NCBI GenBank assembly: GCA_000960865.2
Contig: JZWU02000004.1
Location: forward strand, 10,200 to 74,199
Reading direction: 5' to 3'
From: Vulcanisaeta sp. AZ3
GTDB lineage: Archaea; Thermoproteota; Thermoprotei; Thermoproteales; Thermocladiaceae
DNA length: 64,000 bases
Position 1 is the stretch's first letter; each line of letters opens with the position of its first letter. Positions 46,911-57,537 of the stretch are shown piece after piece. Under the pieces are notes generated by a model that did no database searches, was not told the DNA's origin, and saw only the letters and a program-made list of their open reading frames with translations. A program made the translations under genes and the position numbers.

Positions 46911-46950
46911 AAAGGTAAGATTTAAGTAAACAGCTGTTACCTTAATGATA

Positions 46951-47000
46951 GTGACGAGAGGAGGGATGTGCAGATCGATGAAGATGGATTTGAACGCAGA
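46951..47000 (+). ncRNA. C/D-box sRNA; D guide complementary to the tRNA T-loop (predicted Cm56 guide)
   Basis: GTGACGA(C)-GAGGAGGGATGTG-CAGA(D')-TCG-ATGAAGA(C')-TGGATTTGAACG-CAGA(D); TATA-like TTTAAG at 46921. Confidence 0.82.
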
Positions 47001-47024
47001 TTAATTAAGAACCCTCCTAATACC

Positions 47025-47594
47025 CTACGAAATTAGGTTCTTTATGAATTTACTGAAGTATATTATCTCGAGATATTCTAGGTTGGCAGCTATGAAAAGT
47101 AGAACCACAGATATTGCGTAGTAAATCAATAATGTTATTAAATCGTTCTTACTAATCGAACCCTTATTGCGTAATGCTCTGAATAATTTTAGGGTGAATG
47201 TGATGGAGCCCGTTGTTGAGAATGCGTAGGCGAGTAACTCAATTATGCCATGAGGAAAAAATAGGGTGACTAATAATGCGGATATTAATACTAATGGTGA
47301 ACTAACTGTGTAAGCTATGTCAACACCCAATATAAATCCAGTTGTTGTCAGAGAGATTATGAAAGCAACAGGACCGATCACCGGTACTGCCATTAAGGTG
47401 TCTATCTCCAGGTTATGGAGGAAGATGCCATTAGGACCTAATTTTACAGCACTCAATAATTCATTCTTTATTACATTAATGGTTGACTGACTTATTAAGC
47501 GAGGGCCAATATAGAAGCCAATTATTGATAAAATAACCATAATTACAAGCTCAAGCATATACACAATAAAGACGTTCTTAATACTAATATTCAT
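47025..47594 (-). CDS. SpoIIM/DUF95-family membrane protein
   Basis: IFLHNL and PHGIIEL motifs, C-terminal AANLE. Confidence 0.85.
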   Translation of the reverse strand: MNISIKNVFIVYMLELVIMVILSIIGFYIGPRLISQSTINVIKNELLSAVKLGPNGIFLHNLEIDTLMAVPVIGPVAFIISLTTTGFILGVDIAYTVSSPLVLISALLVTLFFPHGIIELLAYAFSTTGSITFTLKLFRALRNKGSISKNDLITLLIYYAISVVLLFIAANLEYLEIIYFSKFIKNLIS

Positions 47595-47605
47595 GTACTT
47601 ACCAC

Positions 47606-48484
47606 CTAACCGTTAATGTTTTGATACATGAACCTCTGCGTTGCTAGATTATTCACGAACGTGGAAAGCTGTGTAGGTGTATACGTATCATCATAAGCCC
47701 CGCTCACTGAGTTATAACCTAGTATAAACACTACCGGTGAGTTAACAGATGAGGTACCTAATGGCGCTTGCGTGTAAAATGGTTGTACATAATATGCATT
47801 AAGTATGACACCAACACTGGTTTGATACTTCGTAATGATATTCTCATATTTGTTCACACAATTTGTTACGTTCATATTTATACTCATTTGATTCAGCATA
47901 TTTTGTATTAAGGTTGTACTTGTTAGGCTTGCTACTTTAGTGGCATTGGAACCCACATAGGAAGCTACCTCCCTTAGGAATAATAATGCATTATCCTTAT
48001 TTGTTGAATTATAGTATAGGCAATATGCCACAGACGCTACATTAGTCTCTGCAAGGGTCATTGGAGATGAACCAGTACCCATAAATGAGAATAGGTTGAA
48101 GGCTATTTCATACTGCACAAGGCCTGACTTTGTTGAATTTAGCATGTAGTTTATGTTTGATAGCGTGAAGTTAGTGCCAGGCGGCATGATTGGATTGTAT
48201 ATTATTAGTACTTTGATGGGTGCTGTATTCGGTCCATAAACGAGACTATAGTTGGTGAATAATTTATATATTGATGATGCATTTAGTAATTGAAAGTATG
48301 GAGGCCACGCAATAATATTCACCTGATAAGAGCCTATGCCCAGCGGCAATGTTATTATCGTTGTGCCTCTATGTAATGTTGTTGGCGGTGCTACAACCTT
48401 AACAAGTATGAAATATGTAACTACAGCAGCTAGTGCAATTACTAAGGCCAGTATTGTCATCCCAATTACCTTATTAACATCCAT
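47606..48484 (-). CDS. Membrane-anchored extracellular protein, probable DsbA/thioredoxin-like fold lacking CxxC
   Basis: N-terminal TM helix, [16 protein letters not shown], multiple N-x-S/T sequons. Confidence 0.6.
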
Positions 48485-48577
48485 ACCTATGCTCTCCGTA
48501 CATTAAGCGATCACTTTATTAAGGATTACTCACGCTCACCCACACCCTCTAGATCATTAGAGAAATGTTTAAATTAC

Positions 48578-48811
48578 ATGCGATTCCACGAATTACCAAT
48601 GGCAATATCCAGAGTTGAGAGACCGAAGCCTGCGCTGTATGGACCAAACGTACCAGTGTGCACTTCATGCGGTAAGCCCATTAAACCCTATGAGAGGGCT
48701 ACTCACTTCTTATGCCCGAACTGTGGTAAGGCAGAGATCTGGAGGTGCGAGCATTGCAGGAGGACTGGCAATCCATATAGATGCCCAGTCTGTGGTTTTG
48801 AGGGACCTTAA
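48578..48811 (+). CDS. Double zinc-ribbon protein (DUF1610/COG2888 type)
   Basis: [25 protein letters not shown]. Confidence 0.9.
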
Positions 48812-48842
48812 TTCATTTAAATCATCAAATGAGTTACATACC

Positions 48843-49250
48843 TTAGCGATTAAGGTGGGAAGATTTATCGTTCTTCCAATCGCTGAATGGTCTTGGAAAT
48901 AACTCCTTAAGGCTATGTTTAATGACTTGATCATTATGAATGATTATAACCTCCTCAACACCAAACTCGCTCATTACTTGTAGACAAGCACCACAGGGAT
49001 ATATTGGTTTATCAAGATTTGATGTTAAGACCACAGTCTTGATCTTTCTCTCACCATTTGATACGGCGTTGAAGATTGCAACTCTCTCGGCACATATTGT
49101 TAATCCCAGCGATGCGTTTTCCACATTAACACCGCGATAAACCTTACCCTCTGGTGTTATTGCTAGAGCACTAACTTTAATGTTACTGTACGGTGCATAT
49201 GAGTACCTTAACCCATCCTTAACAATCTCAATCCACTCCTTCGGTATCAT
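48843..49250 (-). CDS. cdd: Cytidine deaminase
   Basis: YAPYS, NVENAS, CAERVA, PCGACLQ. Confidence 0.93.
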   Translation of the reverse strand: MIPKEWIEIVKDGLRYSYAPYSNIKVSALAITPEGKVYRGVNVENASLGLTICAERVAIFNAVSNGERKIKTVVLTSNLDKPIYPCGACLQVMSEFGVEEVIIIHNDQVIKHSLKELFPRPFSDWKNDKSSHLNR

Positions 49251-49368
49251 TAATTCCTAGATATCTCATCTCTTCATTTAAGCCTTTGACTACTTTGGGA
49301 GACCTCCCACGTAATTTTTAGCAATGCTTTAAATACTCCATCCTTCGTATTATGATTGGTGATATGGT

Positions 49369-50034
49369 TTGAAGAAGGCCATAATAATTAGTGCGAATAA
49401 TGTTAGTATTGAAGTAGCTAGGATACTCAGTAATAATGATTATGAGGTTTCAATAGTCGATAATGATGAACAATTATGTGAGAAAGCCTACAAGGTTCTT
49501 AAGTCGAAGGCGCTAATTTATAGGGGAGATCCTCGAAGTGCTGATGTACTTAATGATGTTGGTATTGATAAAGCAGAGATTTTATTAGCGCTTTCGAGTA
49601 ATGATGATATAAATTACGAAGCCTGTAAGATCGCCAAAGAGAGTGGTGTTCCTTTTGTGATTGCTAGGGTCAATGACAAGAGTAAAGAGGATTTATTTAA
49701 GGAGTTAAATGTAGAGGTAATAAGTGTTGAGGACATTATTACAAGTAAAATTGGGGACCAAGTGCTTAGTAAATTCACGGAACAGCTACTTACAGATCAA
49801 TCTTCAGGACTTTCCTTCGTAAAGATAAGGATTAGGGAGAACTCAGAGGTCATAGGTTTAAAGGTAGGAGATTTAGTGAGCACCTATGATGTTGCAATAC
49901 CATACATAGTAACTTCTGGTGGTGTCATTAAGCCTGACAATGAGCATGTAATTGAGAGTAACATGGAACTCGTTGTCGTAGGCCCCCTGGACCATGTTGA
50001 AAACTTAATTAAGAGAATAATCGGTGAAGCATGA
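49369..50034 (+). CDS. TrkA-family (RCK N+C) regulatory protein
   Basis: GD, DDIN, IARV motifs plus a C-terminal TrkA-C-like domain; GxGxxG degenerate. Confidence 0.8.
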   Translation: MKKAIIISANNVSIEVARILSNNDYEVSIVDNDEQLCEKAYKVLKSKALIYRGDPRSADVLNDVGIDKAEILLALSSNDDINYEACKIAKESGVPFVIARVNDKSKEDLFKELNVEVISVEDIITSKIGDQVLSKFTEQLLTDQSSGLSFVKIRIRENSEVIGLKVGDLVSTYDVAIPYIVTSGGVIKPDNEHVIESNMELVVVGPLDHVENLIKRIIGEA

Positions 50035-50035
50035 A

Positions 50036-50824
50036 CTATTCATTATTCTCAACACTACCATACCTTTCCTTATTTTTCGCGAATAATTCAAAGGCCTTAT
50101 TAAGTATGGAATACTTAACGTCGTCAATAGTTCTTAAATCTTTATATATACCCCTCGCAATTAATTCCACATACTTATCCTCAATGGCTGCAATATCAAC
50201 ATGCGGATCCTCAATACCTTGATCCTTCATGTACTCATTTAATTCCTCACGTAAATCATCAATGAGCACGCCATCCTTAGGTACCTTAAACGGGATCCTA
50301 ACCTCAATACCTTCGGTAGGTGATACCTTCCTAATCATGTTCTTCATAAGTAGGGTATACGGTACATAAATAAGTTCATTACGTGAGTTCCTAATCACTA
50401 GTCCTAGTGATGTTTGTTTAATCACGTAACCCTTAATGCCCATGACCTCTACATGATCACCAATATCCAATGAGTAATCCCTAATGAGCCTACTTATCTT
50501 ACCTGTAAAATACTCCTCAATTATTGGTCTCATACCTATTATTAAAATGACAGCAACAATTATGAGCAGGGCACCAACAATTAAATATTGCCCATACACA
50601 TAGGCTATGGCTGATAATATAATTACAGCCAATATAATTCTAAAAATAAACCTCGCATTCTCAACATCACCCTTCCTACTAAGTTTAATGAAGACCTTAA
50701 TTATCCTACCAAAGACATAATCAAGTAGAAAATATATCGCAATCGCCGTAATTATCACAATTAAGGCAGTCTCTATCGAGTAAAGGATACCTCCAGGAAT
50801 CAAGCCATTAATCTCGATAATCAT
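50036..50824 (-). CDS. Small-conductance mechanosensitive channel (MscS family)
   Basis: 3 TM helices, IGDHVEV..IKG, YVPY. Confidence 0.82.
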   Translation of the reverse strand: MIIEINGLIPGGILYSIETALIVIITAIAIYFLLDYVFGRIIKVFIKLSRKGDVENARFIFRIILAVIILSAIAYVYGQYLIVGALLIIVAVILIIGMRPIIEEYFTGKISRLIRDYSLDIGDHVEVMGIKGYVIKQTSLGLVIRNSRNELIYVPYTLLMKNMIRKVSPTEGIEVRIPFKVPKDGVLIDDLREELNEYMKDQGIEDPHVDIAAIEDKYVELIARGIYKDLRTIDDVKYSILNKAFELFAKNKERYGSVENNE

Positions 50825-50877
50825 ATGTTACTAAACCATATGGCTACAATCTCTTTAAAAACCTAAATTAACTTAAG

Positions 50878-51312
50878 CTAATGAACAACCAACACAGGTC
50901 TATTCGCATACCTAATCACCTTCTCTGACACGGAGCCAAGTAGGAACCTCGTTAAACCCCTCAATCCTCTAGAGCCGACAATTATCATATCCACACCAAG
51001 TCTATTAGCTACATTTATTATAGTATCAGCAGCATCAGCGCCAGTCTCGAGGAGCCCCTCGGCATCAACACCCATGCTTCTTGCATATTCAAGCGACCTA
51101 TTTAATATATCCCTACCTTGTCTCTCCATGGTCTCTATTAATGATGGATATATTGCTGAATCCTGAGCTACTACTACCTTACTCTCCTCAATCACATGTA
51201 GTATATAGAGCTTTGCATTGAATATCTTGGTAATGCTTATCGCATATTCAAGTGCCTTTTCTCCAGCCTTTGATCCATCAACACCAACCAGTATTTTAGA
51301 TATTAATTGCAT
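50878..51312 (-). CDS. Universal stress protein
   Basis: ILVGVDGS, VGSRG…LGSVSEKV…PVLVV. Confidence 0.95.
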   Translation of the reverse strand: MQLISKILVGVDGSKAGEKALEYAISITKIFNAKLYILHVIEESKVVVAQDSAIYPSLIETMERQGRDILNRSLEYARSMGVDAEGLLETGADAADTIINVANRLGVDMIIVGSRGLRGLTRFLLGSVSEKVIRYANRPVLVVH

Positions 51313-51515
51313 TAATTAAATGACACATAAACTAAATAAAAGCTTAACCTTAGTCATTGTCTTAATTTTGGCAAAATTTAATTCTTACCACTTTTATCAC
51401 AATCTCGCAATTTTCCATTTTACGCATCCAAGACAAATTAATGATCGCATCTTCGGCTAAATGTTATCTCACTGGAAGATGTCTCCCATCCCTAGAATTC
51501 ATATTTAACTTTAAA

Positions 51516-52232
51516 TTAAAGCCTTTGGTTGTAGATACTGTAGGTAGTGCATATAGGCTTTAGTTCGCATCTCATGCATAATGATATGTTCGGTGGTTTA
51601 GTCGGCCATCCTTGGAATGATTCGATTGCTTTCAACTCGTTTAAGACCCCCTGGTACTCTCTCCTTAATCCCATTATTGGTAGGGGCTTAACCTCCCTCA
51701 TTGTGACTAAGTAAGCCTCTCTAATCTGTATACCTGCCTCCTCGAGCATGAATATATATGAAGTAACCTGCTTTAGGTATCTCTTTTCCCTATCCTCATC
51801 TAGATTCCATGAACTCTTTAATTCAATTAATCCCCAAATCTCATCATCATCGAACTCCCGCATATAGACAATATCAGCCCTACCCGAGGTGTCTGCAGTT
51901 TCTATTCCACTTTCAACCTCAACATGGACCCTTGGATTAACAATCCTAAACCACTCCTGGTACAAATCATGGATGGCCCTACCCCTAGCTAGGTTCCTCA
52001 AGCCGTCCATGTTTGTTATTGTGCCATATCTAAGCTTAATTAATGATTTTACAATGCAATCATAGCTGAATATGGATGGTGTTGCCCTACCCGTGGGTCT
52101 ATCCACGAGGTACAACCCATCGCCTATCACCTGGGCAGTACGCATCATTTCTTCTAAGTAATCCTCAGTCTTTCTGCTAATCTCATCTCTGCTAAGAACC
52201 TCAGCAATCGGCTTAATCACTAACTTAACCAT
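51516..52232 (-). CDS. cas4: Stand-alone Cas4-like exonuclease (PD-(D/E)XK with Fe-S cysteines)
   Basis: Cys in YDC, RGRAIH, GRADIV, IELKS, QVTSY, CMRCELKPIC. Confidence 0.85.
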   Translation of the reverse strand: MVKLVIKPIAEVLSRDEISRKTEDYLEEMMRTAQVIGDGLYLVDRPTGRATPSIFSYDCIVKSLIKLRYGTITNMDGLRNLARGRAIHDLYQEWFRIVNPRVHVEVESGIETADTSGRADIVYMREFDDDEIWGLIELKSSWNLDEDREKRYLKQVTSYIFMLEEAGIQIREAYLVTMREVKPLPIMGLRREYQGVLNELKAIESFQGWPTKPPNISLCMRCELKPICTTYSIYNQRL

Positions 52233-52318
52233 TTGCCAGAGGATCCTATATTTAACTCACTTATAAAGTCAAAACTCATTATAAGTATTTAAAGTAGTGA
52301 ATCTCCATAGGGTATGTT

Positions 52319-53302
52319 ATGGTATACGTGGGTGTTGATGTCGGCGCCACATACATAAGGGTTGGATTAATTAACAATGAGGGTAGTGTTATTAGTAAAG
52401 TTAAGACTAGTCAGCCGTCTAATGGTAATGAGAATACAGTTGCGGAGGTAATAATTAAGCTAATAAAAAGCCTAGTGGGTTCTGAAAGGATTGATGGTAT
52501 TGGCATTGGTTCAATAGGCCCCCTTGACCTGAGGGAGGGTATTGTCCCGCATGCACCGAATGCGTCAATTAAGAGTTTTAAACTCGTGGAACCTATAATT
52601 AGGGAGCTTAAGGTGCCTGTGGTACTTGGTAACGATGCCATGGCAGCTGCATGGGGTGAGTATGTATTCGGCATTGGTAAGGGTATGGAGAACCTCGTAT
52701 ACGTAACCTTCAGCACTGGGATAGGTGCTGGAGTCATAGTTGATGGTCACTTACTAGTTGGTAAGGATGGCAATGCCCATGAGATAGGCCACCTCGTCCT
52801 TGATGTGAATTCAGAATTACAATGTGGTTGTGGAGGTTACGGTCATTGGGAGGCATTGGGGTCAGGTGCCAACGTGCCTAAGGTAATTAGGGAATTCGTA
52901 AAGGGTAAGGTGTACTCGTCAAGCCTTTACGAGAAGCTAATGAGGAGTGAGTTAGTCACCACGGAGAATGTTTTCAAGGCTTATTACGATGGTGATGAGT
53001 TAGCAAGGGATTTCATAGATAACTTCCTTATGAGGATACACGCTGCTGGGTTGGCATCTGTCATGAATGCCTACGACCCAGAGCTCGTGATTTTAGGTGG
53101 CTCGATGGCGCTCAATAATCAAGAATTATTTAGGAGGGGTATTGAGAAGTACTTAGGTAGGTATTTAACTGTTAGGGCAGCTAGAATTGAATTCACAAAA
53201 TTCGGTGATGATATAGGCATAATAGGTGGTGCAGCTCTCGTGAAAAGAATTCCAGATTCTTTAAGGAGCTTCGTAGAATCCTACAGTAAATACATATCCT
53301 AA
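52319..53302 (+). CDS. ROK-family ATP-dependent hexokinase/glucokinase
   Basis: GVDVGAT, NDA, STGIGAG, HEIGH, CGCGGYGHWE. Confidence 0.92.
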   Translation: MVYVGVDVGATYIRVGLINNEGSVISKVKTSQPSNGNENTVAEVIIKLIKSLVGSERIDGIGIGSIGPLDLREGIVPHAPNASIKSFKLVEPIIRELKVPVVLGNDAMAAAWGEYVFGIGKGMENLVYVTFSTGIGAGVIVDGHLLVGKDGNAHEIGHLVLDVNSELQCGCGGYGHWEALGSGANVPKVIREFVKGKVYSSSLYEKLMRSELVTTENVFKAYYDGDELARDFIDNFLMRIHAAGLASVMNAYDPELVILGGSMALNNQELFRRGIEKYLGRYLTVRAARIEFTKFGDDIGIIGGAALVKRIPDSLRSFVESYSKYIS

Positions 53303-53390
53303 GTGTCAGTAGAAGGCCAGGTCAATGATGTGCTTAGTTGTAATACGGCTAGAAAGATACTTCAAGACCGGAGTTCATTGAGGTGATGGC

Positions 53391-53756
53391 ATGTATAAGC
53401 AAGTAATTATTGTTAGGTCTGACCTAAACATGTCTTGCGGTAAGACTGCAGCTCAGGTTGCCCACGGCTCCGTGGGTGTGGTTCTCAGAATACTCAATGA
53501 GGGTAGGAGAGATTGGATGATGTGGTTTAAGGCTTGGGAGTCTTCAGGGCAGAAGAAGATAGTGCTTATTGTTGATTCATTAAATGAACTATTAGCGCTT
53601 AAGGAGAAGGCTGATAAGCTTGGGCTACCGAGCTTTCTAGTTGAGGATGCAGGGCTTACGGAACTACCACCAGGAACAATAACAGTACTCGCCGTAGGGC
53701 CAGGGCCTGAGGATCTTATTAATAAGGTGAGTGGTTCATTAAAGCTATTGAGGTAA
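53391..53756 (+). CDS. pth2: Peptidyl-tRNA hydrolase Pth2
   Basis: [32 protein letters not shown]. Confidence 0.95.
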
Positions 53757-53761
53757 TTGCA

Positions 53762-54463
53762 ATGAGTAGGACTAGTATCTTTAGAAATATAATGAATAGA
53801 GTATTTGCTTATTCAAGGTATGATTTAGTCAATAACATAGTTACATTGTACTTGTTACGTAAATTGAGGTATTGGGCATCCATGGAAATCATAAAATCCA
53901 TGAATGAACATGACTGTATAATACTTGATCTAGGTGCTGGTGATGGGTCAATGACTAAGTACCTATTGAAGTTTAGTATTAAGCCCAAGTCCATAGTACT
54001 CCTTGACCCTGCCATAAATGGGCTCCTTTCTATTAATGAGTTAAGGCAAGAATTCATTGATAGAGTTGTTGGTGTTAGTGAAGCATTACCGTTGAGACAA
54101 TCGTCAATATGCACCATATACACCGCATTCGCCTTTAGGCAATTTAATAATAAGGCCCTAGCCCTTATTGAGGCACATAGGGTTTTGAGGAGAAATGGTT
54201 CCTTCGTAATTCTCGAGTTTTGGAGACCTGACGGTGCCATGGCCCACGCAGTACTGCTTTATTACTTAACGTTGCCCCTACCATTGCTAATATCTATAGT
54301 AGCCCCGAGGTCAATTAGGGACTACCTAATAATGAGAGATACAATTAGGGGTATTGGGCCGATTACGTGGTTGAAAGACTTAATTAACAGGTTTATTGGT
54401 AATGTTGAATTCTTTAAGAGATATTTAGGAATATTCGTGATAATAAGAGCTAGGAAGAATTAA
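53762..54463 (+). CDS. UbiE/MenG-like SAM-dependent methyltransferase
   Basis: YDLVN, LDLGAGDG, EALP, FAFR, RVLRRNG..VILEF. Confidence 0.82.
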   Translation: MSRTSIFRNIMNRVFAYSRYDLVNNIVTLYLLRKLRYWASMEIIKSMNEHDCIILDLGAGDGSMTKYLLKFSIKPKSIVLLDPAINGLLSINELRQEFIDRVVGVSEALPLRQSSICTIYTAFAFRQFNNKALALIEAHRVLRRNGSFVILEFWRPDGAMAHAVLLYYLTLPLPLLISIVAPRSIRDYLIMRDTIRGIGPITWLKDLINRFIGNVEFFKRYLGIFVIIRARKN

Positions 54464-56238
54464 ATTATTCCTAATCTAACCAGAATCTCCTGCCTCGGCT
54501 TACCACTCTCATCATAACTCCTCAACTCATAGTATTTGCTCACCATGAATGACCACTCATCCTCCGAAATAACATACCTCTTACCTTCATACTCAACAGG
54601 TTCCCTCAACCACCTAGGTGGAAGTCTATCCTGGTCGATAGTAGTTTCATTCATAAATCTATGGAGAACAATTATTCTTTGAGAAACTTCCCTCAACTCA
54701 TTCACTGTATACCCAAGGCCAGTCACTGCATTCAAAGCGTCCTTAATTACATCCCACGTATACATGGCCCTACCGAACTTACAGAGAAGCATTGAGTCAT
54801 ACAGCGCATTCCTCTCCTCAATATCCATAACAGCCTTAACCTTATCCTCACCAACGGCAAACCTACCACCAGCCTGTCCAGCGATATCTATGGCATATGC
54901 ACTTGACCATAAATGATCAGCACCCCTTTCAGAGACAGCATTATTCAGTATCATACCCTTAAGAGTCCTCGGATCATAGCCAGCTGGTTCAAGCCCCTTG
55001 ACATGTATCGCCAAGTCAGGAACGCCTAATCTCTCGGAAATAGCCTTTGTACCTAATGCCGCTAATTCACCCAAGCCTCTTCTATAGGCTGTATCAATTA
55101 TTAACTTCCTAATTCCTTCATAATCACCCCACTTAGGCGCATCTCTAACAATACCTCTCTCGCCAAGGTAAATTAGGAAGGCTATTGTATTCCCAAGACT
55201 TATCGAATCAAAACCCAGTCTATCCGCTAGCTCAGCGAGATCTATGACTTTCTGCGGATCACTAACACCCATTAATCCACCCAATGCCATGGTTGTTTCA
55301 TACTCTAAGTCATACTCACCATCACTTGACCTAACGACCTTATGACAAGCCACTGGGCAGTATAAGCATGCACCATTCTTTACAAAGTACCTGGGCTTAA
55401 TTGACTTTTCCCATGATATATTCTCCCAATTAGGCATAACAACCCTCGTCCAGTAAATGGATGGAAAGAAACCCATACCATTACCAGCATCGATAAGTCT
55501 AACAGTACCACCCTGTCTATATGGGACCATACCTGGATTAGTCACAGCTTGCCTCCCTAAACTCCTAACAAGGTCCTGATAAGCCTTATCATTAGCAACA
55601 TCTACAGACTTACCCATTGGTACAAATGTTATGGCCTTCACACCCTTACTACCCATCACAGCACCACCACCAGTACGCCCAAACTGCCTCCAATCCTCAT
55701 GACCAATACATGCATAGGGCACTTTATTCTCCCCAGCAGGCCCTATTGTTAGCACAGCGGAATCCCTAAACTCTCCCTTGATTGCATGTTCAGTCTCTAC
55801 TGTATCCAATCCCCACAAATCCCTAGCATCCCTAATCTCAACCCTACTATCACTAATAATTAAGTGCACAGGCTTAGGACTTACCCCAGTAATTACCACA
55901 GCATCAACACCCGCATACTTCATGTAAGCCCCCAACGTACCACCTACTGTAGAGTAGCTCCATCTATTCGTAAGTGGCGATTTAAAGATAGCCGCAGCCC
56001 TCGTGGAAAGAGGTATTCTAGTCCCACCAAGCGGTCCTGTGGCTATTATTAAGGGGTTCTCCGGCCCATAGGGATCAACATTGTTTAAGCTGAGACCCAT
56101 ATCAAAGATAAGCTTTAAGCCTAAGCCTCTGCCTCCAATGAATGACTTAGCGATTTTCTCGTTCAATTTCTCAACTTTCACCTCACCATGTCTTAGATCA
56201 ATCCTTAATATGCGATTTGCATAACCATACACGTTCAT
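54460..56238 (-). CDS. aor: Tungsten aldehyde:ferredoxin oxidoreductase family protein
   Basis: GGRGLG, KSPLT, IGPAGE, GRTGGGAVMGSK, CLYCPVAC, EYET, YDPR, RGADH, CKF. Confidence 0.93.
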   Translation of the reverse strand: MNVYGYANRILRIDLRHGEVKVEKLNEKIAKSFIGGRGLGLKLIFDMGLSLNNVDPYGPENPLIIATGPLGGTRIPLSTRAAAIFKSPLTNRWSYSTVGGTLGAYMKYAGVDAVVITGVSPKPVHLIISDSRVEIRDARDLWGLDTVETEHAIKGEFRDSAVLTIGPAGENKVPYACIGHEDWRQFGRTGGGAVMGSKGVKAITFVPMGKSVDVANDKAYQDLVRSLGRQAVTNPGMVPYRQGGTVRLIDAGNGMGFFPSIYWTRVVMPNWENISWEKSIKPRYFVKNGACLYCPVACHKVVRSSDGEYDLEYETTMALGGLMGVSDPQKVIDLAELADRLGFDSISLGNTIAFLIYLGERGIVRDAPKWGDYEGIRKLIIDTAYRRGLGELAALGTKAISERLGVPDLAIHVKGLEPAGYDPRTLKGMILNNAVSERGADHLWSSAYAIDIAGQAGGRFAVGEDKVKAVMDIEERNALYDSMLLCKFGRAMYTWDVIKDALNAVTGLGYTVNELREVSQRIIVLHRFMNETTIDQDRLPPRWLREPVEYEGKRYVISEDEWSFMVSKYYELRSYDESGKPRQEILVRLGII

Positions 56239-56329
56239 TTACCCGTAACCTCTCTTTTTATTCCTTAAATAATAAATAATCATTCGAATACTTATTAATT
56301 GAGCATTAAGTACTTAAGCGCATGTTAAT

Positions 56330-57124
56330 ATGGAGCCATGTATGGTTGAGAAGGTTTTTTCCAATGGTGGTTGGATTGTTAGGATTGATGGTGGTATTGC
56401 CGAGGTTATCATTAACAAGCCTCCTCTAAACCTAATAACACTCGAGATGAGGAGAGACTTGGGAAAGATAATTAACGAGCTAGAGGGCGATGATAATGTT
56501 AAGGTCGTGATTTTCGAAGGCGCCGGTGATAAGGCATTTAGCGCCGGCGGTGATGTTACAGAGTTTCTAAACACAGAAGCCACGGACTTAATTGATTGGG
56601 GTAAGACTGTGGAGATGATTGAGGAGCTTAGTAAGCCCACAATAGCCCTACTAAGGGGTTACGTACTCGGCGCAGGCACTGAGTTAGCGTTAACCTGCGA
56701 TATAAGAGTTGCCACACCCGACGTGGAGATCGGATTACCCGAGATTAGACTAGGTATGGTACCAGCTAGCGGTGGCTTAACAAAGATGGTTAAGGCCCTA
56801 GGCCCACTTAGGGCCAAGTACTTCCTACTCCTCGGTAAGAGAATTAAAGCTGAGGAAGCGCTCCAGCTAGGTCTTGTTCATGAGATTGTTGAACCTGGTA
56901 AAGTTAGAGATAGGGTTATGGAGATCGCCAAGGACTTAATGGGCATGTCGCCATTGGCATTAAGAGCTATGAAACAAGCAATAAGGCTAATCCAAGATTC
57001 ATCTACTGAGGTAGGTTATGAAGTGGAGAGAAGGACCTTTGCATTATTAAGACACAGTCAGGACTTTAAGGAAGGAATAACGGCATTTAAGGAAAAGAGA
57101 GCACCTAAATACCAAGGTAAGTAA
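56330..57124 (+). CDS. Enoyl-CoA hydratase/isomerase (crotonase family)
   Basis: AFSAGGD, KPTIA, GAGTEL, CDIR, PEIRLG, DFKEG. Confidence 0.93.
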   Translation: MEPCMVEKVFSNGGWIVRIDGGIAEVIINKPPLNLITLEMRRDLGKIINELEGDDNVKVVIFEGAGDKAFSAGGDVTEFLNTEATDLIDWGKTVEMIEELSKPTIALLRGYVLGAGTELALTCDIRVATPDVEIGLPEIRLGMVPASGGLTKMVKALGPLRAKYFLLLGKRIKAEEALQLGLVHEIVEPGKVRDRVMEIAKDLMGMSPLALRAMKQAIRLIQDSSTEVGYEVERRTFALLRHSQDFKEGITAFKEKRAPKYQGK

Positions 57125-57159
57125 GCAAAACTATTAAAGGGGAAGATAAGTACAAAGAA

Positions 57160-57243
57160 TTGTTTGCTACCCTGAGACCCGCTTAAGAGCGGGACTATGA
57201 GGGCAGCGGGTTCCCCCGGAAACACATCCCTCCCATGCTACTT
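57160..57243 (+). ncRNA. K-turn hairpin RNA, H/ACA-like pseudouridylation guide candidate
   Basis: GCTACC-CTGA-GACCCGCT-TAAG-AGCGGGACT-ATGA-GGGCAGC hairpin with CUGA/AUGA K-turn; ACA 14 nt after the stem (57222-57224); TATTAAAG about 25 nt upstream; GC-rich island in the intergenic gap; ends approximate. Confidence 0.72.
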
Positions 57244-57537
57244 TCACTTTCTAATCACCTCATTAATAACTTCATCAATATCCAATTTAATGCTATCCAA
57301 AACTCTATAGCCCACCCGCCTAATCTCACCATTTTGGATCACATATATCTGAGGTATTCTGATTATTCCATTGCTTATGCCGTACTTTATTAATAACGAT
57401 ATTACTGCCTCCTCGTTGTAATTATGGATCTCGCATTCAAAACCTATTCTAAGTACTTGTTCACATAAACTGTCCAAGTCCTTCCTTAAATAATCCCAAT
57501 CAGCCGTTACTATAACGACTCTCTTCACGTTTTTCAT
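57244..57537 (-). CDS. Small thioredoxin/glutaredoxin-like protein lacking CxxC
   Basis: VVIVTADWDYL where the WCxxC site is expected; IPQIYV resembles the cis-Pro strand. Confidence 0.6.
   Translation of the reverse strand: MKNVKRVVIVTADWDYLRKDLDSLCEQVLRIGFECEIHNYNEEAVISLLIKYGISNGIIRIPQIYVIQNGEIRRVGYRVLDSIKLDIDEVINEVIRK

Follow-up and report, generated by a model that had tools for sequence, protein, structure and literature searches.

The D' guide of a tRNA Cm56 box C/D sRNA in Vulcanisaeta matches the ACA boxes and tails of H/ACA-like sRNAs, a hint of cross-talk between two guide-RNA systems

A box C/D sRNA of the hot-spring archaeon Vulcanisaeta sp. AZ3 (genome G000, 1.51 Mb, 89.85% completeness; other G numbers are congeners) is, judged by its sequence, a guide for tRNA Cm56, and the match of its second guide, the D' guide, to the 3' tails of several H/ACA-like sRNAs hints at cross-talk between two guide-RNA systems. 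The D' pairing with these tails looks to be under selection. With moderate confidence, we read the D' guide as an antisense element that selection maintains against 3'-extended H/ACA-like precursors, at their ACA box and the 7-9 following bases, in which the U opposite guide position N+5 would be methylated. The C/D sRNA and one of the H/ACA-like sRNAs lie in the window, the whole stretch of 64,000 nucleotides that was analysed (Table 1).

Table 1 Features of the C/D sRNA locus and of the PyrR205-like locus in the window.
Feature	Position	Strand	Basis or remark
TATA-like promoter element of the C/D sRNA	46919-46929	+	sequence reading; putative promoter
Box C/D sRNA, tRNA Cm56 guide	46951-47000	+	box anatomy and homologues
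Box C	46951-46957	+	part of the C/D sRNA
D' guide, 13 nt	46958-46970	+	antisense element in question; core AGGAGGGATG
Box D' (CAGA)	46971-46974	+	part of the C/D sRNA
Box C'	46978-46984	+	part of the C/D sRNA
D guide, 12 nt	46985-46996	+	part of the C/D sRNA
Box D (CAGA)	46997-47000	+	part of the C/D sRNA
CCCTCCT motif in the C/D sRNA's own 3' trailer	47012-47018	+	antisense to the 5' portion of the D' guide
TATA-like element upstream of the H/ACA-like sRNA	57131-57139	+	sequence reading; putative function
H/ACA-like sRNA, distant PyrR205 relative	57163-57226	+	weak Rfam matches, fold, orthologues
K-turn hairpin of the PyrR205-like RNA	about 57166-57207	+	predicted fold
3' guide core of the PyrR205-like RNA	57206-57219	+	common to orthologues
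Two overlapping ACA of the PyrR205-like RNA	57222-57224 and 57224-57226	+	sequence
Site complementary to the D' guide	57223-57233	+	11 Watson-Crick pairs; U57227 opposite N+5

The C/D sRNA carries boxes C, D', C' and D in the order of an archaeal box C/D sRNA, with guides of 13 and 12 nt, and its boxes are off consensus (GTGACGA; CAGA twice, not CUGA) at tolerated positions where congeners vary as well. Of 41 related genomes, 30 yielded a homologue. No Rfam model matched the sRNA at its gathering score, the best being sR2 with 20 bits against a cut-off of 42, and no Rfam covariance model matched at the 12 homologous loci. Upstream of box C, an A/T-rich box of the ...TTAAGTA type stands at equal spacing in 12 genus loci, and similar TTATTAA-type boxes occur in the loci orthologous to the PyrR205-like RNA; the sequence-only reading had given each RNA a TATA-like element of its own on the + strand, and both were recovered as putative promoters. 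Genes for fibrillarin (PF01269, 336.6 bits, contig C1:16451-17131) and Nop10 are encoded in the genome.

The D guide pairs by at least 10 bp with the T-loop, placing C56 at N+5, in 41 of 43 predicted tRNAs, which bears out the earlier assignment of tRNA C56 as its target. A stand-alone Trm56 (PF01994) was found in none of the 39 genomes of two families of the order, G000 included, and is present in both genomes of a sister family; the Cm56 C/D sRNA, for its part, turned up in 30 of the 39 but in neither sister-family genome. In Pyrobaculum aerophilum, tRNA Cm56 is reportedly guided by a C/D sRNP, in work attributed to Renalier and colleagues in 2005. The D guide described here resembles that system in its T-loop pairing and its placement of C56, whereas the D' guide differs in being conserved across the genus and in matching H/ACA-like sRNA tails; the D' guides of Pyrobaculum-type genomes have another sequence. 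The use of a C/D sRNP instead of Trm56 for tRNA Cm56 would thereby reach beyond a single species to two entire families of the order.

Within the window, GGAGGGATGTG (46960-46970, + strand) and its exact reverse complement (57223-57233, + strand) are the sole two exact copies, which confirms the 11-nt match that had first drawn attention to this pair. One further window site has one mismatch to this sequence; with one mismatch allowed, 100 shuffles averaged 0.82 sites, and 3 sites were reached in 5 of them. A46966 is position N+5 and pairs with U57227, as had been stated. The description of this U as the third nucleotide after the ACA is right for the box aligned by homology (57222-57224) but not for the second box, after which it is +1, because ACA occurs twice with an overlap; in the other H/ACA-like RNAs found, the base opposite N+5 is +1 after the ACA. 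The first T-run after the PyrR205-like RNA lies only at about 57241-57252, so the primary transcript could include the complementary site.

The PyrR205-like RNA is below the Rfam cut-off (PyrR205, RF02803, 14.1 bits against 35.6; PyrR204, 16.1 bits), and no congener locus reaches an E of 0.01 on the PyrR205 model. It has the K-turn hairpin, single-stranded 3' guide and terminal ANA box of PyrR205, and a 14-nt guide core (at most one change) links G000 and seven congeners to genomes of another family of the order, whose RNAs score 85-90 bits on this model. Orthologues were recognised by the common 3' guide and synteny in 11 of 12 congeners, and the RNA lies about 10-11 kb from the C/D sRNA in G002, G003, G004, G005, G006, G008 and G009. 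As a pseudouridylation target, one congener's rRNA gave only partial matches in a simple antisense scan. The expectation that the in-window pair would be conserved in relatives failed: none of the 11 congeners reaches 9 bp at the orthologous tail with its own D' guide, 10 of them having at most 7 bp and the closest congener 5+4 bp. The predicted in-window pairing is lineage-specific.

Across the genome, six non-self sites pair with the D' guide over at least 11 contiguous Watson-Crick bp including N+5, one of them over 12, while 60 shuffled guides gave a mean of 2.5 sites and a maximum of 20, with 9 of the 60 reaching six. The strength of the match alone is not unusual; the location of the sites is. 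Three of the six fall in 3' tails of H/ACA-like sRNAs and begin at the ACA box in the same register (two of the three RNAs having been found through the complementary motif itself), and they belong to the PyrR205-like RNA in the window, a PyrR207-like RNA on contig C8 and a PyrR209-like RNA on contig C22. Each combines a K-turn hairpin and 3' guide with a promoter-like box. The descriptor scans for H/ACA-like sRNAs were crude and missed the PyrR207-like RNA, and in the genus the PyrR205-, PyrR207- and PyrR209-like RNAs, at 14.1, 15.3 and 18 bits, come nowhere near the Rfam cut-offs. In Rfam, the PyrR205 and PyrR207 models stop at the ANA/ACA box, so the complementary site may exist only in a putative precursor. 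The remaining three sites lie antisense to open frames 367-603 aa long. The sequence-only reading had called an 11-mer match in 64 kb only modestly unlikely and its position inside a small RNA much less likely. The genome holds an equal or better match than the in-window one, over 12 bp, and that match is itself an H/ACA-like sRNA tail in the same register.

These counts bear on coincidence, under which the D' guide would be a purine-rich, Shine-Dalgarno-like orphan that pyrimidine-rich tails match by chance and shared descent. The number of 11-bp sites within the shuffled-guide range, the lineage-specific in-window pair and the abundance of the guide's 8-mer (96 sites where 41 are expected, most of them antisense to RDV/RRD-type codons) would all suit such an orphan, as would the targetless second guide of about 80% of tRNA-targeting Pyrobaculum sRNAs given by Lui et al. 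(PMC6009581). We nevertheless hold coincidence to be improbable: three matches lie in register on ACA boxes within one genome, and with about ten such boxes in roughly 3 million positions (our own estimate) the probability of three in-register chance matches is negligible.

No better rRNA or tRNA target for the D' guide emerged from the rRNA of four congeners, the 16S 3' end and the predicted tRNAs. The rRNA of the four congeners contains no sense match with at most one mismatch, the 16S 3' end pairs over only 6-8 nt, and the best tRNA run is 8. The guide's 10-mer was no commoner than a reversed control in five genomes, the three 10-mer sites conserved between orthologues all lie antisense to coding frames, and no other conserved expressed target of the D' guide was found.

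The D' guide core is invariant in 11 of the 12 genus genomes, the variant of G006 being 1 nt shorter. PyrR209-like orthologues occur in 11 of 12 congeners, and their pairing was counted in the 11 genomes with both RNAs, G000 included, using each species' own D' guide. The tail pairs over 9-12 bp in a common register in 7 of the 11: 12 bp (1 G-U) in G000, 12 bp in G012, 11 bp in G005, 11 bp (1 G-U) in G006, 10 bp in G011, 9 bp in G008 and 9 bp (1 G-U) in G001. In G004 a C is lost from the tail without compensation, leaving 8 bp (1 G-U), and G002, G009 and G003 have 5 bp each. All 11 comparisons, the weak ones included, have a Watson-Crick A-U pair at N+5. G006 provides a compensatory change, in which one G is gone from the guide, one C from the PyrR209-like tail and one C from the C/D sRNA's own trailer; its duplex has a G-U and a mismatch at N+1 and N+2 and keeps N+3 to N+13. 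Anchored at the ACA, the mean pairwise identity of PyrR209-like RNAs is 0.64 at +1 to +8, equal to that of the 20 nt before the box, and falls to 0.33 at +9 to +16 and 0.30 at +17 to +30. Both the conservation of +1 to +8 against about 0.3 downstream and the compensatory indel argue against coincidence as well.

Complementarity, register, conservation and one compensatory change are all observed here, and the 9-12 bp in 7 of 11 genomes together with the compensatory change lend comparative support to the general idea. The comparisons support a D' guide aimed at an H/ACA-like tail for the PyrR209-like RNA (7 of 11) but not for the PyrR205-like pair in the window (0 of 11). Good pairing by PyrR207-like tails is confined to two of the six genomes in which that RNA was found, G000 (12 bp) and G005 (10 bp, 2 G-U). 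G002, G003 and G009 keep the D' guide, and none of the three H/ACA-like families examined exceeds 7 bp at the ACA register in them, so something else must hold the guide there.

The C/D sRNA's own 3' trailer is also complementary to the D' guide, by 7-9 bp in all 12 genus genomes and by at least 7 bp in only 1 of 18 loci of other genera; the motif stays beside the sRNA despite an inverted downstream SpoIIM-like gene in this genome. CCCTCC(T) could accordingly be a common 3'-flank signal of a few sRNA genes, for example for termination or processing by a protein, with the guide kept mainly for the own-trailer helix and the H/ACA-like matches a by-product. The motif in 12 of 12 genomes agrees with such a signal, and so does the long-range guide-trailer helix, present in the minimum-energy fold of all 12; G002, G003 and G009 keep guide and trailer though their H/ACA-like tails have decayed. 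However, the fold z-scores range from -0.03 to -4.68, several species having weak ones, and as many as 90 of 200 shuffles folded equally well. A 7-nt guide-trailer match occurs in just one of the 22 further C/D candidates that the box pattern gave in this genome. In addition, GATGT or GATGC, the conserved 3' portion of the guide, finds its partner in an ACAUC that the H/ACA-like tails have and most own trailers lack. We consider a flank signal quite unlikely as the main explanation. In most species the trailer base opposite N+5 is mismatched, which indicates that this conserved pairing is not for methylation.

In the preferred reading, the D' guide would bind the ACA box and trailer of 3'-extended precursors of Pyrobaculum-type, K-turn hairpin sRNAs, and its steady partner across the genus would be the PyrR209-like RNA. 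According to the N+5 rule, the C/D RNP (L7Ae/Nop5/fibrillarin) would 2'-O-methylate the U adjoining the ACA box, and the likeliest use would be to fix or protect the mature 3' end during trailer trimming. We infer the existence of the precursor, the pairing in the cell, the methylation and its purpose. It speaks against this reading that Cbf5 must bind the ACA box. The duplex would cover this box, so the two RNPs would compete.

Identical comparative evidence speaks for a non-catalytic pairing, in which the C/D RNP or the naked D' guide would be a chaperone, tether or mask on the ACA and trailer, holding the precursor for trimming, delaying Cbf5 loading on the ACA or coupling the two RNPs without a functional methyl mark. 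The predicted duplex covers the ACA box itself, N+5 is mismatched in most own trailers, and G006 keeps N+3 to N+13 despite its disturbed N+1 and N+2, all of which would suit pairing alone. The A-U pair at N+5 in 11 of 11 PyrR209-like comparisons, the register of a normal methylation guide and the intact C'/D' boxes favour methylation instead, and we regard a purely non-catalytic role as unlikely. More tentatively, one sRNP may have two jobs, the D guide directing tRNA Cm56 and the D' guide a 2'-O-methyl on the U beside the ACA of several H/ACA-like sRNA precursors, where the mark or the duplex would set and protect 3' ends. If this held, a methylation-guide system would control the biogenesis of pseudouridylation guides, as an RNA-guided counterpart of HEN1 end-marking.

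Atypical H/ACA-like sRNAs of Pyrobaculum (Rfam PyrR205, PyrR207 and PyrR209) are said to have been described by Bernick and colleagues in 2012. The RNAs found here share with them one K-turn hairpin with a single-stranded 3' guide and an ANA/ACA box after it, and a 3' guide core common to members at 85-90 bits on PyrR205; they differ in that several have a conserved pyrimidine-rich post-ACA tail matching a C/D guide. Eukaryotic snoRNAs and scaRNAs guide 2'-O-methylation of small stable RNAs such as U6 and other snRNAs. The predicted case is similar in that a C/D guide would act on a small non-ribosomal, non-tRNA RNA, but the target would be a guide RNA of another modification system, in an archaeon, and the site would lie at the 3' end box, not inside a functional helix. 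HEN1, a protein-only enzyme that reads the RNA end, carries out 3'-terminal 2'-O-methylation of plant miRNAs and animal piRNAs. The likeness to HEN1 would be one of function, not membership, if the methylated U is terminal or nearly so and blocks 3' trimming or tailing, whereas an internal precursor nucleotide would be selected here by base pairing.

Roughly one in four archaeal C/D guides is an "orphan", and in Pyrobaculum the share is 28%. According to Lui et al. 2018 (PMC6009581), conserved targets of archaeal C/D guides outside rRNA and tRNA were not known. If the preferred reading is true, the H/ACA-like ACA and trailer would be the first such target class and would link two guide-RNP systems. 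It would also bear on the 3'-end formation of archaeal small guide RNAs, with one guide, one nucleotide and three substrates. Processing snoRNAs such as U3, U8 and U14 act on pre-rRNA, pairing with the precursor but leaving it unmethylated. The C/D RNA described here is like them in its predicted pairing beside the maturation site of a stable RNA and unlike them in its target; a closer parallel to these snoRNAs is a second C/D sRNA of the genome (contig C3, ~16830, minus strand), whose D' guide matches, in antisense, 11 nt at the 3' end of 16S rRNA in congeners.

The box C/D sRNA whose D' guide is at issue corresponds to no Rfam family, and the whole window gave no Rfam match at the gathering score. 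The window (C4:10200-74199) belongs to an assembly of 1.51 Mb in 55 contigs (89.85% complete), which encodes fibrillarin and Nop10. Homologues sharing this D guide turned up in 30 of 41 related genomes, comprising those of the genus except G007 (G000 denotes strain AZ3 and G001-G012 its congeners) and those of five other genera. The D guide paired over at least 10 bp with the T-loop of 41 of the 43 predicted tRNAs and placed C56 at N+5, opposite the fifth guide nucleotide upstream of the box, which is the predicted 2'-O-methylation site. In the two sRNA-carrying families, 39 genomes in all, Pfam Trm56 (PF01994) was not found; both genomes of the order's third family have it, and there the sRNA was not detected. 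The T-loop pairing together with the failure to find Trm56 indicated that the sRNA is a C/D-guided Cm56 system of the type reportedly described for Pyrobaculum aerophilum. RNA-guided tRNA Cm56 seems to characterize whole families and not single species. Box C position 5 and D/D' position 2 depart from U together (C with A in the window sRNA; in congeners, A with A, G or U), so that other non-canonical pairs stand in for the K-turn U-U pair across the sRNA family.

Features of strain AZ3 considered here (window positions, or contig positions where a contig is named)
Feature	Position	Strand	Description
Box C/D sRNA	46951-47000	+	box C GTGACGA, 13-nt D' guide, box D' CAGA, box C' ATGAAGA, 12-nt D guide, box D CAGA
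D' guide	46958-46970	+	
SpoIIM-like membrane protein gene	47025-47594	-	directly downstream of the C/D sRNA; inverted relative to congeners
PyrR205-like H/ACA-like sRNA	~57163-57226	+	K-turn hairpin, then single-stranded stretch, two overlapping ACA triplets
D' guide site, PyrR207-like sRNA	C8:11623		12 bp
D' guide site, PyrR209-like sRNA	C22:3876		11 bp + G-U
Intron-containing tRNA	C8:11263-11381	-	~240 nt from the PyrR207-like sRNA
C/D sRNA candidate	C3:~16830	-	outside the window; same box C variant GTGACGA

The sequence-only reading had proposed that the D' guide methylates the PyrR205-like RNA just after its ACA box. The 11-mer at 46960-46970 was confirmed as the exact reverse complement of 57223-57233, with A46966 as N+5 opposite U57227, and no change in either 11-mer was among the differences listed for DNA contigs of four sequencing runs, the best-matching of which may be the source sample; a search of sequencing runs listed none of RNA from this organism. 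Rfam scores of the K-turn RNA against the Pyrobaculum H/ACA-like families were weak (14.1 bits for PyrR205, cut-off 35.6, and 16.1 bits for PyrR204), and BLAST against 40 relatives returned no orthologues; these were located instead by the pattern of the 3' guide core and by flanking genes. The 14-nt core, with at most one change, was found in seven congeners, in most of them ~11 kb away from the C/D sRNA, matching the window arrangement. Genomes of another family have it too, in copies scoring 85-90 bits on PyrR205. Flanking genes yielded four additional orthologues. The window RNA is a distant relative of PyrR205. When each species' own D' guide was set against its own PyrR205-like RNA and tail, we counted 11 Watson-Crick pairs in G000, 5+4 pairs flanking a mismatch in the closest relative G010, 7 pairs including one G-U in G002, G003, G004, G008 and G009, and no in-register pairing in G001, G005, G006, G011 and G012. 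The conservation in relatives that the proposal led us to expect was thus not observed for this pair, and the PyrR205-like alignment loses conservation directly past the ANA box.

Across the AZ3 genome, the D' guide could form at least 11 contiguous Watson-Crick pairs, N+5 included, at six non-self sites, and 12 at one of these; with shuffled guides, the number of such sites averaged 2.5 and reached 20. Because the window pair is not kept in congeners and the number of sites lies within the range of shuffled guides, the match was first read as coincidence. Three of the six sites lie on the strand opposite to open frames of 367-603 aa. The two non-coding sites beyond the window each lie at an RNA 3' end; both RNAs combine a TATA-like box and a K-turn hairpin with a single-stranded 3' stretch and an ACA box, and they weakly match PyrR207 (15.3 bits, C8) and PyrR209 (18 bits, C22) in Rfam. 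At both, the complementarity starts within the ACA box and N+5 stands opposite the U directly after ACA, in the same register as at window 57224-57233. Of the six best matches among 3 million positions, three therefore coincide in register with the ACA box of an H/ACA-like sRNA. A D' guide aimed at an H/ACA-like tail has lost the support of a conserved window pair, but is favored by this common register and by the pairing of the PyrR209-like RNA in congeners. A 7-nt sequence in register with the D' guide (ACATCCC) also occurs in the long insert of the intron-containing tRNA on C8.

The PyrR209-like RNA was located in 11 of 12 congeners, and BLAST with one query detected it in none of the 18 other-genus genomes of the family. 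In-register pairs with each species' own D' guide, anchored on ACA, were counted in the 11 genomes with both RNAs, leaving out G007 (RNA present, C/D sRNA not found) and G010 (RNA absent, 79%-complete assembly). There were 12 in G000 (one G-U) and G012, 11 in G005 and G006 (one G-U in the latter), 10 in G011, 9 in G008 and G001 (one G-U in the latter), 8 in G004 (one G-U), and 5 each in G002, G009 and G003. The D' guide core is altered in G006 only, by the loss of one G, and the PyrR209-like tail and the sRNA's own trailer of that genome each lack one C; the guide and tail losses are one compensatory event. Mean pairwise identity of the tail at +1 to +8 was 0.64, the same as in the 20 nt before the box, and fell to 0.33 and then 0.30 further downstream. 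Five congeners yielded a PyrR207-like orthologue, with good pairing in G005 only (10 bp with two G-U). A second G009 match and a G007 site were rejected as further H/ACA-like tails, having the motif and no sRNA features, and a metagenome pattern scan returned six loci, the one relevant locus being identical to G004.

A competing rRNA or tRNA target for the D' guide was sought and none was found. The AZ3 assembly contains only positions 4-828 of 16S and no 23S, and the rRNA of four congeners was used for the search. No sense-strand match with at most one mismatch and two G-U was obtained in these rRNAs, where the best site, in 16S, has 8 Watson-Crick pairs, 2 G-U and 1 mismatch, and the 16S 3' end has only 6-8 nt in common with the guide's complement. 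The best run among the predicted tRNAs was 8. In five genomes, the D' core 10-mer did not outnumber its reversed control. A conserved mRNA or ncRNA target was rejected after comparison of 65 exact 10-mer sites (50 from G004, G008 and G011 and 15 from G000, with 32 G012 sites left out), as each of the three clusters conserved across genomes lies antisense to a coding frame. Inspection by eye of 25 additional 9-mer sites in the complete congeners G004, G008 and G011 revealed no H/ACA-like tail or sRNA features.

The D' guide is also complementary to its own flank. A CCCTCCT motif lies 8-16 nt past box D in 12 of 12 genus genomes and matches the 5' part of the guide over 7-9 nt; trailer-guide complementarity reached 7 nt at 1 of 18 loci in other genera. 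The resulting helix is part of the minimum-energy fold of all 12 genus loci, with z-scores from -0.03 to -4.68. As N+5 is mismatched in most species, the helix cannot serve methylation, and it may instead cover the guide, act as a competitor of its targets or assist processing. CCCTCC was rejected as a general trailer of C/D genes, being confined to this sRNA among 23 box-pattern candidates. The inverted SpoIIM-like gene, 58% identical to the + strand gene of G005, has its breakpoint within ~6 nt of CCCTCCT, and the motif remained with the sRNA. At the G010 locus (L006), CCCTCCT is immediately followed by a 9-nt complement of the D' guide including N+5, and this sRNA could target its own trailer. 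At L019, L021 and L023, three of the five loci from two other genera, the sequence past box D is complementary over 6-8 nt to the C' box region and not to the D' guide, which is a different long-range hairpin within the same sRNA family.

Judged from these comparisons, the most probable role of the D' guide is that of a selected antisense element directed at the ACA and trailer in precursors of H/ACA-like sRNAs. The PyrR209-like RNA would be the old partner, and the AZ3 lineage would have gained two more, the window RNA included. The U adjoining ACA would be methylated, and the mark or the duplex would set or protect the 3' end; alternatively, the duplex might hide the ACA box from Cbf5. Since the site lies beyond the Rfam model ends of these families, the antisense element requires a 3'-extended precursor, and several species have T-runs after the motif at which a precursor of this kind could end. 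Against the antisense reading, three species retain the guide without a good tail, the deletion in G004 is uncompensated, and two of the three target RNAs were detected through the motif itself. Two of the three also came up in a crude, motif-independent descriptor scan; such scans gave 224, 20 and 6 candidates, missed the PyrR207-like RNA and do not amount to a census.

The accessible part of Lui et al. (2018, PMC6009581) gives orphan guides as 28% of Pyrobaculum guides and a second guide without target in ~80% of tRNA-targeting sRNAs, with no conserved target outside rRNA and tRNA known in Archaea, and that of Breuer et al. (2021) does not mention an H/ACA target. A literature search, with supplementary tables outside its scope, found no report of an H/ACA sRNA as the target of a C/D guide. 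The D' guide of the C/D sRNA candidate on C3 is complementary to 11 nt of the congeners' 16S rRNA 3' end and anti-Shine-Dalgarno region, and would span the mature 16S 3' end in parallel to the H/ACA-tail case.
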